A DNA stretch of 64,000 bases from an uncultured Candidatus Saccharibacteria bacterium (GTDB taxonomy: Bacteria; Patescibacteriota; Saccharimonadia; Saccharimonadales; Saccharimonadaceae). Position 1 is the stretch's first letter. Each line of letters starts with the position of its first letter. The stretch spans positions 11,253-75,252 of the forward strand of contig CANDYV010000001.1 in assembly GCA_947425085.1 (NCBI GenBank), given 5' to 3'. A model generated the notes under the pieces. It ran no database searches. It was given only the letters and a program-made list of their open reading frames with translations, and was not told the DNA's origin. Of the stretch, positions 31,175-53,566 are shown in pieces. Both the position numbers and the translations under genes were made by a program.

Positions 31175-31237
31175 ACCCTAGTAGAGGCCTTTCTTCCGAG
31201 GTGACACCCGGAAACGACTCGCAATTAACGCACAGAC

Positions 31238-31266
31238 TTGACATTTTTATCGACCTGTGCTACAAT
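31238..31266 (+). promoter_or_regulatory. Near-consensus sigma70 promoter
   Basis: TTGACA-17 bp-TACAAT with a TG extension. Confidence 0.8.
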
Positions 31267-31417
31267 AGATGTAAGCCAACCGAATTGGTTAGTTTCGGCA
31301 TGTCTAAAATGTTTAAAGCGAGACGCACTACGCGTCCGAAGAGGCATCGCTCGAACTCCCCAATCGGTTCGCTTCGCACTGGTCCAAAAATCCACCACAG
31401 AAAAGAGGTGAATATGA

Positions 31418-31621
31418 ATGTCTTGGACTCAGCACAACTCCGACCTGCAACCGGCCGGAACCCAATCTACGGGCGCATATGGCAGCTCCCACTCAAGCCC
31501 GATCTCGGCTCTCTTGAGTGGATTCAGCAAGAGCCCTGCGCAATGTGAAGACGCCTACGGCGTCTACAAGTCCGAGTACGACCGCGAGGTCGCCAGACTC
31601 AAGCGTGAAGGTCGCCTGTGA
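31418..31621 (+). CDS. Small orphan protein (67 aa)
   Basis: SD gaggtg 7 nt before the ATG. Lies inside a promoter-terminator unit. Confidence 0.5.
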   Translation: MSWTQHNSDLQPAGTQSTGAYGSSHSSPISALLSGFSKSPAQCEDAYGVYKSEYDREVARLKREGRL

Positions 31622-31822
31622 GTGACAACATCCGTCGCCACCAAGACCCGCGCTTTAGCGCAGTTGAAGCGCTAACCGCGGCGAGAGGCTGACCAGGAAG
31701 GCTAGCCAAGCCAGCCGCTCTCCGCGGCAAAGGCTCTTCGCGCAAAGTCCGCGCGAAAACCGAAGCACAACCCCTGCGCTAGCACACCAGGCGCACCCTG
31801 CGCCAACCCGCGCTCATGACCA

Positions 31823-31854
31823 GGGCGGCCCCATAACGGCCGCCCAATTTTCTT
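31823..31854 (+). terminator. Terminator-like hairpin closing the orphan unit
   Basis: Stem gggcggcc/ggccgccc followed by aattttctt. Confidence 0.65.
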
Positions 31855-31928: not shown

Positions 31929-32160
31929 TGCTATAATAAAAACGTTCAATCTTGTTAACATATGTCAACTATTTTTAGTGACGTTGTCATTTTTACCTTT
32001 TGCGATTATCGCGTGTCGGAAACGGCACCGCAGCAATGCACACGATGGTCCGAAAGGTTCAAAGTTGACGCGTTGACAGGATTGAACACCCCTGCGGTGT
32101 CGTTTTTGTTTTAGGGCATGGACGGCCGCTGAGGTTATCAAACCTAAAAGGAGGGCTGTG
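31929..32160 (+). promoter_or_regulatory. Extended -10 promoter plus structured 5' leader (candidate cis-regulatory RNA), copy 1
   Basis: TGcTATAAT at 31929-31937. 31944-31970 pairs with 32063-32087 and 32020-32033 pairs with 32092-32105, followed by a U-rich tract and SD aggagg. Confidence 0.65.
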
Positions 32161-33216
32161 ATGCTAAAATACCAAAGAAACTTTAATGCTGTTGGAGGAA
32201 TAAGCTGCTTTTGCTTACTTTTGCTAGAACTTTTTCTAATCAACCCACTCGCAAGTTCGCCAGCTAGCGCCATTGAAGAAGCCGGCCAAGCTGATTCTGG
32301 GCAGTCCTTCGTAAGTTCTTCCGTCAAGATCGAATTTCTACCGGTCGCCTCTCCTAGCCCGATTACCCCGACCACGCCTGAAGGCGTGTCCGCGCAGGCA
32401 ACGGTTCGCTCTAACATCGGAATCAAAAATTCCGGCGGCTATAGCATTTATCTAGGCGGTTCCGGCGAGCTTGTCGGTCAAAAGACCGGTGCAACAATTT
32501 CCGGCACGCCCAACCCCTCAACTCTCGAAGATCTCCCAGCAAACACTTGGGGCTATGCCGTCACTACGGAAGAAAGCCTCCCATCAGATACAACCTATAA
32601 AGCGTTATCGGCTGGCCAAGGCGACCTCTTGGCCAGTCAGAACACTCCAGTTCGCGAAACCAACCATACTTTCACACTTGGCTTCGCAACGAAAATTGGC
32701 GTAGATCGCCCGGCCGACACCTACGAAGGAAAGTTTGTGCTTTCGGTTATCTCCTCGCCGCGCGAGCTCGTCGCGCTCAGTGATTTGGATACTTTGCAAC
32801 AAATGACGAGTAAAATCTGCGAAAATACAGCGCCGGGCACCGAGGTCGAACTTATCGATGAGCGCGACGGTCAAATCTACCCCGTCACCAAATTTGCCAA
32901 GGATAATAACTGTTGGATAACTCGGAACCTAGACTATGCGCTAGATCCAGGCGCTCCATTGACGAGCGAACTTTCCGATGTCTCGACGACATGGACGCCG
33001 CCGGCTACTGTGCTAACCGGCTCGCCGTCCAACTTTAATAATAGCAGCAATGATCTCGTTGCCTCATATCGAAGCGCCGACAATGCCACTTACGGTACGT
33101 ATTATTCCTGGGGCGCCGCAACCGCCTTTATCGTGCCGTTTGACCCTGGCGTAATCTGGCCGTCGGGTGTCACCAGCCGCTTTAACGGCTGCTCCGTTCG
33201 CTGCATCGCGCGATAA
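32161..33216 (+). CDS. Secreted FISUMP (Fib_succ_major)-domain surface protein, copy 1, with internally shortened C-terminal domain
   Basis: Signal-like N-terminus, NTWGY beta-domain, LQQMT..IC, DERDG..Y, CWITRNLDY, YYSWGAATA and SVRCIAR. Alternative GTG start at 32158. Confidence 0.82.
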   Translation: MLKYQRNFNAVGGISCFCLLLLELFLINPLASSPASAIEEAGQADSGQSFVSSSVKIEFLPVASPSPITPTTPEGVSAQATVRSNIGIKNSGGYSIYLGGSGELVGQKTGATISGTPNPSTLEDLPANTWGYAVTTEESLPSDTTYKALSAGQGDLLASQNTPVRETNHTFTLGFATKIGVDRPADTYEGKFVLSVISSPRELVALSDLDTLQQMTSKICENTAPGTEVELIDERDGQIYPVTKFAKDNNCWITRNLDYALDPGAPLTSELSDVSTTWTPPATVLTGSPSNFNNSSNDLVASYRSADNATYGTYYSWGAATAFIVPFDPGVIWPSGVTSRFNGCSVRCIAR

Positions 33217-33296
33217 AACTCTACAACGGTTGTAGAGTTTGGAGATTGACTAACAGGGGTGGAGAAAAATAAAAGTCTACAATGGTGATAGAGTTT
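33216..33296. repeat. Perfect 25-bp palindrome and a degenerate second copy
   Basis: aaactctacaac-g-gttgtagagttt (33216-33240) and aaagtctacaatggtgatagagttt (33272-33296); 21/25 identical, 31 bp apart. Confidence 0.75.
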
Positions 33297-33322
33297 GAGG
33301 GTTTCTGGAATTTCTAGGTTTT

Positions 33323-33497
33323 CTCCGCCCCAGCCTCCGCAACCGCCAAAATAAGTCAACCTGCCCGCGAATTATAACGCAGGAAACGATATAGCACATA
33401 CTTATTCCTTTTTTACAATAAAATCGATATCGAAGAGCTTATAAATCTACCCAACAGATTTATTAACTTATTTGGCGGGGCGGCGACTGGGGCGGAG
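33323..33497. repeat. Inverted-repeat-bounded element with conserved core, copy 1
   Basis: Imperfect ~35-37 bp terminal IRs (ctccgccccag.../...ctggggcggag). Core 33387-33432 matches the reverse complement of 51667-51711 except for one indel. Confidence 0.8.
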
Positions 33498-33560
33498 TTC
33501 CTGTATCTCATAGCACATCGCTAAAGACAAACCCGTAATTGATACCATTCCAACGCAATC

Positions 33561-51823: not shown

Positions 51824-53320
51824 TTATCGCGCAATGCAGCGAATAGCAAAGCCGTCTCTTCGCGTACTAGTTTGCGAAGGTTTTATGCTCGCATCACCAT
51901 CAAAACTCAAATAATAAGCTTTGCTTGCCGTCGAATACGGAGTAGACGACCAATACAACCCGCCCTCCCCAGGTCCATAAAGCAAAGTGCTAGACGTTTG
52001 ATCAACGTTACCGCCACGCACGAAATAATATGGAGCAGCAGTAAGCTTCTTCACATCGCCCACAATTCCGCTGACTGCAATTAGCCCACCAAAACTGCCA
52101 GCAGCGGTCGTATTAGATTCTGGCAATTTCCAACCTTTCGGACAAATAGAACTTGTTGCCTGGCCAGAGGTGATCGTGCCACCTGTTCCGGCTGTCGCAG
52201 CGTTCCATTGATAAAAGTTGCCAACGATATAATGTGCATTCACGTCACCGTTCGCGGTAGTTGGCGTGCTATAGGCTGTAAACTGGCTTGGACAATCCGC
52301 AAAGCTAGCTTTCTTTGAACCGCAAGCGCTCGAGGTGGTTGGATTCGTAATCCGATAATTTCCCAAACTCCAAGACCGCTGCCCAGTATCATTAGCCAAA
52401 ATTGTCGAGCTACTCGCTGTTGTCGCGGTAGTATACTCTGGTTTATATGAAGCTACAGAACCCTGCAAATCCGTATCTAAGTTTGTCAACGTCTTACTCG
52501 TAGACAAATCCAAATCTAGATTCTGTGTCATCCAGCATTTACCATCAACGAGCCTCGCCACCCAATAGTATTTTCCGTCCCGCGTATCTTTCAGTTGCTT
52601 CGTTTCGCCAATTTCGCTAGCCGCGCACACATCCGCCGTCATTTCCTGCATCTCGCTAATCGTCGTCAATCCAGTAATCTCCATCGGGCTACTCACCACA
52701 CTCATCGTCACTGAATTCCGGTATGTCCCAGCCGGTTTGTCCGCTCCAATATTCGCCGCAAAACTCAACATATAAGTCCGCGTCTCATCTTTGATATTCG
52801 TACTTGTATTCTCGTCCAACGCTGCGCCCCTCAAAGTTGCCGGCATCGCACTATAAGCATCTTTTGCTGCAGTTCCAACCGCAAACGAATATCCCCAACG
52901 ATTCACTGGCATATTGGCATATGTCGTAGTAGATGCAACCGAATCAATCGCATTAGTTCCATTTTTAAGTTGTGACGAGTCACTTCCTAGGTAAACATAA
53001 TATCCGCCCGAATTTTGCACCCGAACCGTCGCCTTAACATCCACCTTCGCCTTCGCGCCTTTTGAATCTATCGGAGTCACCGTGCCACTCGCCGAAGACG
53101 GCTCGAAAGCGATATTCACCGTCGAAATAGTCGTCGCCTGCGCGGAAATCGAATCACCATAATCCGGAGATCCTTCAGTATCAACTTCATCATTCTCCAT
53201 CTCGATAACCTCCTCCAGCGCACTCGCTGGCAAACTTAGTAGCGGATTCGCTATCAAGAATGCTAGTAGTAATGAACTTATACTCCCAACAATATTAACT
53301 TTTCTTTGACCTTTTCGCAT
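51824..53320 (-). CDS. Secreted FISUMP (Fib_succ_major)-domain surface protein, copy 2
   Basis: Start re-called at ATG 53320 after SD aggagg. NRWGY, MQEMT..VC, DTRDGKYY, CWMTQNLDL, YQWNAATA, ICPKGWKLP, YWSST and AIRCIAR. Confidence 0.88.
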   Translation of the reverse strand: MRKGQRKVNIVGSISSLLLAFLIANPLLSLPASALEEVIEMENDEVDTEGSPDYGDSISAQATTISTVNIAFEPSSASGTVTPIDSKGAKAKVDVKATVRVQNSGGYYVYLGSDSSQLKNGTNAIDSVASTTTYANMPVNRWGYSFAVGTAAKDAYSAMPATLRGAALDENTSTNIKDETRTYMLSFAANIGADKPAGTYRNSVTMSVVSSPMEITGLTTISEMQEMTADVCAASEIGETKQLKDTRDGKYYWVARLVDGKCWMTQNLDLDLSTSKTLTNLDTDLQGSVASYKPEYTTATTASSSTILANDTGQRSWSLGNYRITNPTTSSACGSKKASFADCPSQFTAYSTPTTANGDVNAHYIVGNFYQWNAATAGTGGTITSGQATSSICPKGWKLPESNTTAAGSFGGLIAVSGIVGDVKKLTAAPYYFVRGGNVDQTSSTLLYGPGEGGLYWSSTPYSTASKAYYLSFDGDASIKPSQTSTRRDGFAIRCIAR

Positions 53321-53566
53321 CACGGCCCTCCTTTTGATTATTGATAGACACATCGCGAGCCGCTCTGTCAACATAACAAAAATGGCACCGCGAGGTGTCT
53401 ATACAATGCATCAGGCAAGCTCTAGTTTCCTAGCACTTCTCCATCGGGCACCGTGCCTCGCGGCACCATTCATCGATCGAAAAATGCTAAAATTGCAAAA
53501 ACCAGAAACCAATAAAAACGAACCTGCCTTGACGCAACACATTGTATAGACAACTTCATTATACCA
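53321..53566 (-). promoter_or_regulatory. Extended -10 promoter plus structured 5' leader (candidate cis-regulatory RNA), copy 2
   Basis: TGgTATAAT at 53566-53558. 53552-53520 pairs with 53422-53396 and 53470-53456 pairs with 53395-53381, followed by a U-tract and SD aggagg. Confidence 0.65.

Follow-up and report, generated by a model that had tools for sequence, protein, structure and literature searches.

The question raised by this locus is what kind of element precedes two genes for secreted FISUMP-domain proteins on a 64,000-nucleotide stretch of DNA (the window) from an uncultured Candidatus Saccharibacteria bacterium. The first-pass annotation of the window had described the two upstream regions as two copies of a cis-regulatory RNA in which four segments pair in the order A-B-A'-B', A with A' and B with B'. 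Both pairings were recovered in both copies (Table 1), and the copies can be aligned with each other from the -10 box through the start codon. Compared to dinucleotide-shuffled sequences both fold well (z = -5.5 for copy 1 and -5.65 for copy 2; 0 of 200 shuffles as good).

Table 1. Features of the two leader copies, in window positions.
Copy	Feature	Position	Strand	Basis or remark
1	Extended -10 promoter (TGC TATAAT)	31929..31937	+	read in sequence
1	Segment A, 5' strand of P1, starts at the predicted transcription start	31944..31970	+	pairing, fold
1	U-rich stretch with small hairpin H1	31972..31994	+	fold
1	Hairpin P2, B near its apex	31995..32058	+	fold
1	Segment B (AAACGGCACCGCAG)	32020..32033	+	complementary to B'
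1	Segment A', 3' strand of P1	32063..32087	+	pairing, fold
1	Local hairpin T (ACACC CCTGC GGTGT)	32086..32100	+	terminator-like in consensus terminator scan
1	Segment B'	32092..32105	+	complementary to B
1	U run (TTTTTGTTTT), after B'	32103..32112	+	read in sequence
1	Element D (ACGGCC), anti-SD; pairs with GGCTGT at 32154-32159	32122..32127	+	complementarity
1	Element C, weakly mimics the first bases of A; complementary to the A' tail	32131..32146	+	-9.5 kcal
1	Shine-Dalgarno and start (GGAGGGCTGTGATG)	32150..32163	+	read in sequence
1	Downstream gene, secreted FISUMP-domain protein, 351 aa	32161..33216	+	domain match
2	Extended -10 promoter (TGG TATAAT)	53558..53566	-	read in sequence
2	Segment A	53520..53552	-	pairing, fold
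2	Segment B (AATGGTGCCGCGAGG); 3' part is the GCGA-capped apex	53456..53470	-	pairing, fold
2	Segment A'	53396..53422	-	pairing, fold
2	Segment B'	53381..53395	-	complementary to B
2	U run, after B' (TTTTTGTT)	53375..53382	-	read in sequence
2	Element D (GCGGCTC), anti-SD	53357..53363	-	complementarity
2	Element C (CGATGTGTCTATCAAT), pairs with A' tail and linker	53340..53355	-	complementarity, fold
2	Shine-Dalgarno and start (GGAGGGCCGTGATG)	53318..53331	-	read in sequence
2	Downstream gene, secreted FISUMP-domain protein, 498 aa	51824..53320	-	domain match

Two copies proved to be far too low a count. In the assembly from which the window derives (717 kb, 75% complete; the own genome in the following), BLAST, nhmmer and a pattern search together recovered at least 16 A-B-A'-B' leaders. 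The order of -10 box, leader and Shine-Dalgarno sequence (SD) was identical in all 16, and each is located 5' of a paralogous secreted protein. These copies share an invariant ribosome site, GGAGGGCYGTGATG, and the proteins encoded behind it have a conserved signal peptide and, where full-length, a FISUMP (Fib_succ_major) domain. A covariance model built on the part of the leader between B and the start codon (R1) gave matches in 84 of 151 sampled genomes of the source genus, with at least 20 leader copies in several of them, and single matches in 10 of 150 genomes from other genera and families of the order. A second model (R2) returned more matches, other orders of the class included, with 1-2 copies per genome outside the genus; the 14 matches from outside the genus that were inspected by eye had an identical architecture. 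Judged from their sequences, the two window stretches are thus members of a large, undescribed family of folded 5' leader RNAs that extends across the Saccharimonadia.

The genes behind the leaders differ between the genus and its relatives. Within the genus they mostly encode FISUMP or Listeria-Bacteroides-repeat surface proteins. Outside of it the leader is usually single-copy and 125-135 nt long, and the SD of a small N-terminally anchored membrane protein lies 10-30 nt past its end; at one locus in another genus (L147) the protein is hydrophobic and has 34 aa. A strongly hydrophobic N-terminal segment was found in 61 of 77 leader-associated proteins, against 37% of background ORFs. Behind some intact leaders of the own genome we found short paralogues (76-132 aa) or paralogues with long, basic, low-complexity N-terminal extensions (C1:81510, C12:10152, C29:359 and C40:3518), which may be decaying or variant copies. 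At locus L157 (genome G334, contig C1, from another genus of the same family) the leader precedes a 169-aa membrane-anchored protein (1654-2163) and lies directly 3' of an ORF (3-1466) that resembles a phage tail tape-measure protein; the context of this leader may be a prophage. Leader-gene cassettes were often located at contig ends (own-genome contigs C7:52, C20:52, C3:47665 and C40:3518; loci L135, L138 and L139), and because the leader family breaks assemblies in this way, the copy numbers given above are lower bounds.

To compare the leaders, about 100 copies were retrieved from about 35 genomes, 98 of them unique. Whole-leader MAFFT alignments put segment A out of register, and the copies were therefore parsed one by one and aligned with the guidance of a model. 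The A:A' helix (P1) is specific to each copy. Within the own genome (n = 16), cognate A:A' pairs had a mean energy of -24.7 kcal/mol, non-cognate combinations one of -8.0 ± 3.4 kcal/mol, and the cognate pair was the best in every row and column of the 16-copy comparison. For the 98 unique copies the corresponding energies were -23.9 and -7.4 kcal/mol, and a copy's own P1 partner ranked first of 98 in 84 cases. The annotation had supposed that A:A' is maintained mostly through G-U wobbles, which does not apply to the family: the outer 14 P1 positions of the 98 copies are 89.1% Watson-Crick, 7.4% G·U and 0.7% A·C, and all four Watson-Crick pairs are seen at most of these positions. Its view that the pattern points to RNA was correct: the tenfold excess of G·U over A·C is confined to the sense strand, which in 96 of 98 copies also folds better than its antisense. 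Selection therefore acts on the sense RNA and not on the DNA.

The alignments led to the same picture for both helices. In a plain MAFFT alignment of 28 sequences, for which being in register was the sole selection criterion, P1 was 86.1% paired with 15 of 17 pairs changed on both sides, and B:B' was 98.7% paired with 7 of 14 pairs changed on both sides; none of 500 shuffles reached any of the five measures and slid controls stayed at 34-47%. In the model-guided alignment of 95 sequences, where the guiding model contained P1 and not B:B', 94.8% of the cells pair and 26 of 31 pairs are changed on both sides (0 of 500 shuffles match; slid controls 35-45%), figures that have to be read knowing that the sequences are related, many being paralogues, and that the P1 columns were fitted to the model, which leaves the B:B' columns and the non-cognate energy control unaffected. 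The covariation of A:A' and B:B' is very strong. What had been seen in two copies, pairing that is kept while the sequence changes, accordingly holds for both helices in the 16 own-genome and the roughly 100 retrieved copies, and the covariation that the annotation expected among homologues is overwhelming in about 95 further sequences.

The common anatomy of the leader begins at the promoter. In 94 of the 98 copies a -10 hexamer (TAyAAT-like) ends 4-7 nt before the first P1 pair, and in 71 of these 94 it is preceded by the TGn of an extended -10 element (TGnTAyAAT). A scan for -35/-10 promoters found none in the two window copies, because the leader promoters are of the extended -10 type. The spacing of the hexamer agrees with the earlier placement of A at the predicted transcription start: transcription is predicted to start with the first base of A or no more than 1-3 nt away from it, and the RNA would then have hardly any unpaired nucleotides at its 5' end (pairing sets in within 1-3 nt of that predicted start in 94 of 98 copies). 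P1 comprises 17-30 bp and closes a hairpin or three-way junction of 100-150 nt; the interior folds as a three-way junction with a small hairpin (H1) and a long hairpin (P2) in 55 copies and as a single continuous, imperfect hairpin in 43. A U-rich stretch on the 5' side of the interior is nearly invariant within the genus, H1 loops vary without conservation outside of it, and the cgatgg motif with GAAA hairpin that had been listed as a shared part is not conserved across the family.

Segment B (AAAYGGCRCCGYRAGG) is located at the apex, where it is often partly shut by a CC-GNRA-GG mini-stem; when B is kept single-stranded, its loop measures about 23 nt and leaves no more than 4 and 5 nt on either side of B. 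Segment B' begins 1-4 nt past A' and is followed by a U run in 98 of 98 copies, which extends to the whole family what had been noted for the window copies, namely that B' comes right after A' and is succeeded by a U tract. The complementarity of B and B' amounts to 12-16 bp and continues as 3-5 A:U pairs into the U run; at least three A's stand directly 5' of B in 86 of 98 copies. With so little sequence between A' and B', stacking of P1 on B:B' is possible and would give a single rod, with the 5' end of the RNA next to the 3' end of B. B and B' are conserved in sequence whereas the sequence of P1 drifts freely, a pattern suggesting that several pairings constrain B and B' at once or that a trans-acting factor recognizes them.

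The strand formed by A' and B' is contested. B' has mutually exclusive partners: segment B, the linker together with the end of A' (hairpin T), and a mimic further downstream. Pairing of B with B' yields about -25 kcal/mol, against a cost of about +7 kcal/mol for the release of B from the apex. Hairpin T is formed by the linker and the last 2-3 nt of A' with B', as (G)ACACC/CUUGC/GGUGU(C), directly before the U run; in window copy 1 its 3' arm is common with B' and its first bases are common with A'. Outside the genus T has 6-7 bp and -9 to -10.4 kcal/mol and is followed by U5-6, the canonical form of a terminator, and inside the genus it is weaker (median -5.8 kcal/mol). The last P1 pairs and the 5' arm of T have nucleotides in common, so that one GAC can pair either with the GU(C) at the very 5' end of the RNA or with the GU(C) in B'. 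There are two candidate structures that may block the terminator: the apical mini-hairpin that holds B (about 7 kcal/mol) and P1 itself, when it takes the first 2-3 nt of T.

The downstream mimics take two forms. In the own genome a segment of 10-16 nt just before the SD (C), preceded by GGG, repeats the first bases of A and matches the last ~16 nt of A' plus CCC, and in the 16 copies the cognate combination is stronger than the non-cognate ones (-18.4 versus -12.6 kcal/mol). In other genomes a copy of B (B2), at times fused to C, pairs with the CCC, B' and U run, and this second hairpin of B2/C with the CCC-B'-U run reaches -30 to -58 kcal/mol. Pairing between the downstream mimic and the terminator strand has a mean energy of -17.8 kcal/mol, against -11.9 kcal/mol for shuffled downstream sequence. 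The minimal single-copy leaders of other genera are devoid of B2 and C. For the A' tail the choice between A and C is nearly isoenergetic: the unconstrained full-length fold pairs it with C in 5 of the 16 own-genome copies, and in window copy 2 the unconstrained fold of the full leader has it paired to C, not A. Two further pairings were considered and dropped. An extension of the C pairing into B' holds in copy 2 and a few relatives and is not general, and a role of B as an SD-like ribosome decoy was abandoned because the sequence concerned (GUAAGGAG in some copies) is not general either.

Uncaptured mimic regions tend to form pairs with the ribosome site. The contact near the start codon that had been proposed for the window copies (ACGGCC or GCGGCTC with GGCYGT) was found in most own-genome copies, where element D (ACGGCY) pairs with GGCYGU between the SD and the start; at loci L066 and L132 it is B2 that pairs with the SD or the start codon. 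If the A'-tail/B' strand is free to take up the mimic, positions -14 to +3 are predicted to be more open (0.52 instead of 0.44; 58 of 82 copies show the rise), a modest effect over the whole set that was obtained by pseudoknot-free folding of non-independent sequences. In the own genome the openness increases by at least 0.15 in 11 of 16 copies, mostly from about 0.35 to about 0.7. A first and cruder test, in which the first 16 nt of A were blocked in a pseudoknot-free fold, left the openness of the SD unchanged (0.42 versus 0.43).

A GC-rich helix and a U run lie between the sole predicted promoter and the gene in 98 of 98 copies. No second promoter-like site was detected between the U run and the start codon in a scan of the two window copies, and in the minimal forms outside the genus only 10-30 nt separate the two; therefore every transcript passes the helix and the U run, and it is this arrangement that defines an attenuator. 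At the level of the sequence the leader has what characterizes an intrinsic terminator or attenuator, a GC-rich helix and then a U run between promoter and coding sequence. From this arrangement we infer that the leader is probably a cis-acting 5' RNA that gates its gene mainly by premature termination of transcription, to which a gate at the ribosome site would be added in the genus. Transcription would stop when B' pairs upstream, with B or in T, while the polymerase is on the U run, and a compact RNA of 140-190 nt with both ends base-paired would be released. With P1 fully closed and B locked at the apex the polymerase would read through; the free strand of A' tail, CCC and B' would then act as a toehold that is captured by the downstream mimic, and this capture would draw the mimic off the ribosome site and open it. 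Our best guess for the trigger would be a trans-acting protein or RNA that binds the conserved B apex, rather than a small ligand. The assignment of the strands could be reversed in one respect. B:B' adjoins the U run like a terminator stem; it could instead be an anti-terminator, as the tight-loop tether may prevent its completion in the exit channel while it would still block T.

A wider reading, which we hold tentatively and at a little short of even chances, is that of a class-wide switch of the Saccharimonadia which works by strand exchange among 3-4 look-alike segments (A and C, and B, linker and B2, competing for one A'-B' strand). In one genus this switch would have been copied in each genome before 16-20 or more genes for variable surface proteins, which make up about 2-3% of all genes, with one signal at the shared B apex gating the whole repertoire and P1 being private to each copy. 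The source organism was found in mouse-gut samples, and in two metatranscriptome runs the assembled contigs lie at 31284-31818 and beyond 33596 of the window, outside the leader and its gene.

The same features can be read in other ways. The leader might be a stabilizer or processing element of the mRNA, with P1 shielding the 5' end from 5'-dependent RNases or being cut by RNase III, and with a U run that is incidental or leaky; after cleavage, the part of A' that is left would form a new protected 5' hairpin with C or B2, as in S. aureus cspA. The 5' end indeed has a few unpaired nucleotides at most (pairing begins within the first 1-3 nt in 94 of 98 copies, for a transcription start that is predicted), the 17-30 bp of P1 are sufficient for an RNase III substrate, C corresponds exactly to the ~16 nt at the end of A' together with CCC, the remnant that a cut in the middle of P1 would leave, and the genes encode presumably abundant surface proteins. 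We nevertheless consider this reading unlikely, since it leaves unexplained the class-wide U run (98 of 98), the A run (86 of 98) and the adjoining GC-rich helix of 12-16 bp, as well as the canonical 6-7-bp terminator hairpin of other genera with an SD 10-30 nt behind it, and since the conservation of B and B' beside a drifting P1 asks for more than end protection. A little less probable again is a gene for a stable small RNA of 140-190 nt that runs from promoter to terminator and has a function of its own, the downstream gene being served by leaky read-through. Every examined copy is followed within 0-150 nt by an SD and a gene in the same orientation, with no separate promoter seen; the downstream mimics covary with the 3' strand of the leader and so tie it to the mRNA; and in the short RNA B and B' are paired to each other, with no obvious seed exposed. 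These points weigh against the strong promoter of its own and the terminator-like end, the pairing of both ends (P1 at the 5' end, B:B' and its A:U pairs at the 3' U tail) and the many copies per genome with a private P1 "barcode" and a shared B/B', all of which such a gene would account for.

In a riboswitch that senses a metabolite or an ion, the role of aptamer would fall to the P1/H1/P2 junction together with the B:B' pseudoknot, and that of expression platform to the terminator. A P1-closed junction, a pseudoknot between a loop and the 3' tail, and a terminator are reminiscent of several riboswitch classes, pseudoknotted aptamers being known from preQ1-III, SAM-II/V and fluoride riboswitches, and a regulon of envelope proteins might respond to a signal derived from the host. 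The leaders show no conserved unpaired ligand pocket, however: beyond B/B', the U-rich stretch and the A run there are almost no conserved unpaired nucleotides, the interior is a three-way junction (55 copies) or a continuous hairpin (43) and ranges from 100 to 180 nt in length, junction sequences and number of helices vary, the H1 loops are not conserved outside the genus, and a pseudoknot of 12-16 bp is far longer than the ligand-clamped ones. The chance of such a riboswitch is slim, and of the riboswitch- or attenuator-like switch that the first-pass annotation proposed it is the attenuator that agrees with the anatomy, given the helix and U run in 98 of 98 copies, the exclusive partners of B' and the downstream element; the ligand riboswitch is the weaker half in view of the few conserved unpaired nucleotides. 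There is, finally, a negligible probability that the element has no function as RNA and is a leftover of gene duplication or a DNA-level inverted repeat, such as the end of a mobile cassette or a recombination site. A cassette that is repeated before paralogous genes, with many copies at contig ends, would look like this, but P1 sequences that are unrelated between copies are self-complementary in every case, most positions showing each of the four Watson-Crick pairs, the motif is retained across orders of the class 5' of unrelated genes, and the tenfold excess of G·U over A·C on the sense strand alone contradicts it. Attenuation by a leader peptide was rejected as well: an SD-preceded ORF of at least 5 codons is present in only 25 of 98 leaders, and differs in length and position.

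The absence of a known family was upheld. With Rfam 15 (4227 models) there were no matches at the gathering score in the whole window, and at E ≤ 10 only noise was retrieved with the two leaders (IS009 with 16 bits against a cut-off of 117, a miRNA and isrJ), none of it for copy 2. In the literature on RNA motifs, riboswitches, UTRs and terminators of Saccharibacteria and Patescibacteria we found no description of the leader. The lysM-TM7 motif is a TM7-specific candidate for a cis-regulatory RNA that was described upstream of lysM genes (Weinberg et al. 2017, PMC5737381). Like this motif, the leader is located in 5' UTRs of genes for envelope-related proteins of Saccharibacteria; it is set apart by the described gene context, and it has no match in Rfam 15 at E ≤ 10, although Rfam 15 may not include lysM-TM7.

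With the attenuators and riboswitch platforms that use intrinsic terminators, protein-dependent ones (BglG/SacY-RAT, PyrR, TRAP) among them, the leader shares a GC-rich helix and U run between promoter and gene, one strand with mutually exclusive partners, and a P1 that closes the sensing domain beside the terminator. Unlike in those systems, the main upstream partner, B, is some 60 nt away in an apical loop, the pseudoknot is stacked on a 5'-terminal helix, and there is a third partner downstream of the U run; no leader peptide was found and no known protein-binding motif or ligand pocket was recognized in the leader. 5'-terminal stabilizer hairpins occur in the 5' UTRs of ompA, aprE and the S-layer gene slpA of Lactobacillus, and the 5' UTR of S. 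aureus cspA is processed by RNase III. The leader resembles these elements in its paired 5' end, the long duplex in the UTR and the association with surface-protein genes; to our knowledge they lack the conserved terminator-like helix with U run, the pseudoknot and the downstream mimic that the leader has. Long-distance interactions between 5' and 3' regions are also known from the mRNAs of type I toxins (hok, tisB, aapA1). As in these, the 5' end of the leader is locked by a long-range helix, successive mimics relay to the ribosome site, and in other genera the proteins encoded downstream are small and hydrophobic; different from these, the targets are for the most part secreted and about 500 aa long, the 5' end is locked by a segment of the leader itself and not by the 3' end of the mRNA, and we know of no antisense RNA for it. 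As a terminator-based leader the element is of a familiar kind; its architecture, distribution and copy number are new.

Saccharibacteria are ultrasmall bacteria that live on other bacteria, and beyond lysM-TM7 our searches of Rfam and the literature returned no regulatory RNA family for them. Here the genes for a large share of their surface and membrane proteins, through which contact with the host is expected to be made, lie behind one RNA architecture; in one genus this holds for 16-20 or more genes per genome of less than 1 Mb. If the leader is a switch, it would provide a handle on the control of the cell surface, and geneticists working on this group would have a natural inducible element. 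The fold is unusual in that a clamp on the 5' end is stacked on a long pseudoknot that doubles as the putative stem of a terminator and is accompanied by a downstream mimic, and the covariation is strong enough to make the leader a test case for kinetic, toehold-like switching of RNA.

We also made some observations on the surroundings of the leaders. The own assembly encodes reverse transcriptase only once (RVT_1), in a 561-aa open frame on contig C31 (locus L165, C31:3443-3688). A link between the FISUMP genes and a DGR was considered and is unsupported in the own assembly: BLAST of this contig against the genome returned no pair of template and variable repeat. Between a gene for an AddA/UvrD-like helicase and the promoter of leader copy 1 lies a GC-rich stretch of 675 bp (window 31175-31850) with no convincing ORF, which contains AAAGUCC, folds with a z-score of -5.3 and ends in a clean terminator (31823-31850). 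It matched no Rfam, tRNA or tmRNA model, and bacterial type-A RNase P RNA was not found anywhere in the 75%-complete assembly. In the two metatranscriptome runs this stretch is the deepest piece (contig depth 106 and 32, against about 5-15 for its neighbours), and it is a candidate for an abundant ncRNA of a new type. Finally, the stretch 3' of the FISUMP gene of copy 1 (33278-33545) had a contig depth of 146-229 in DNA-like runs, compared with about 14 in its flanks, and was assembled with several alternative joints; therefore, it is a multi-copy repeat.
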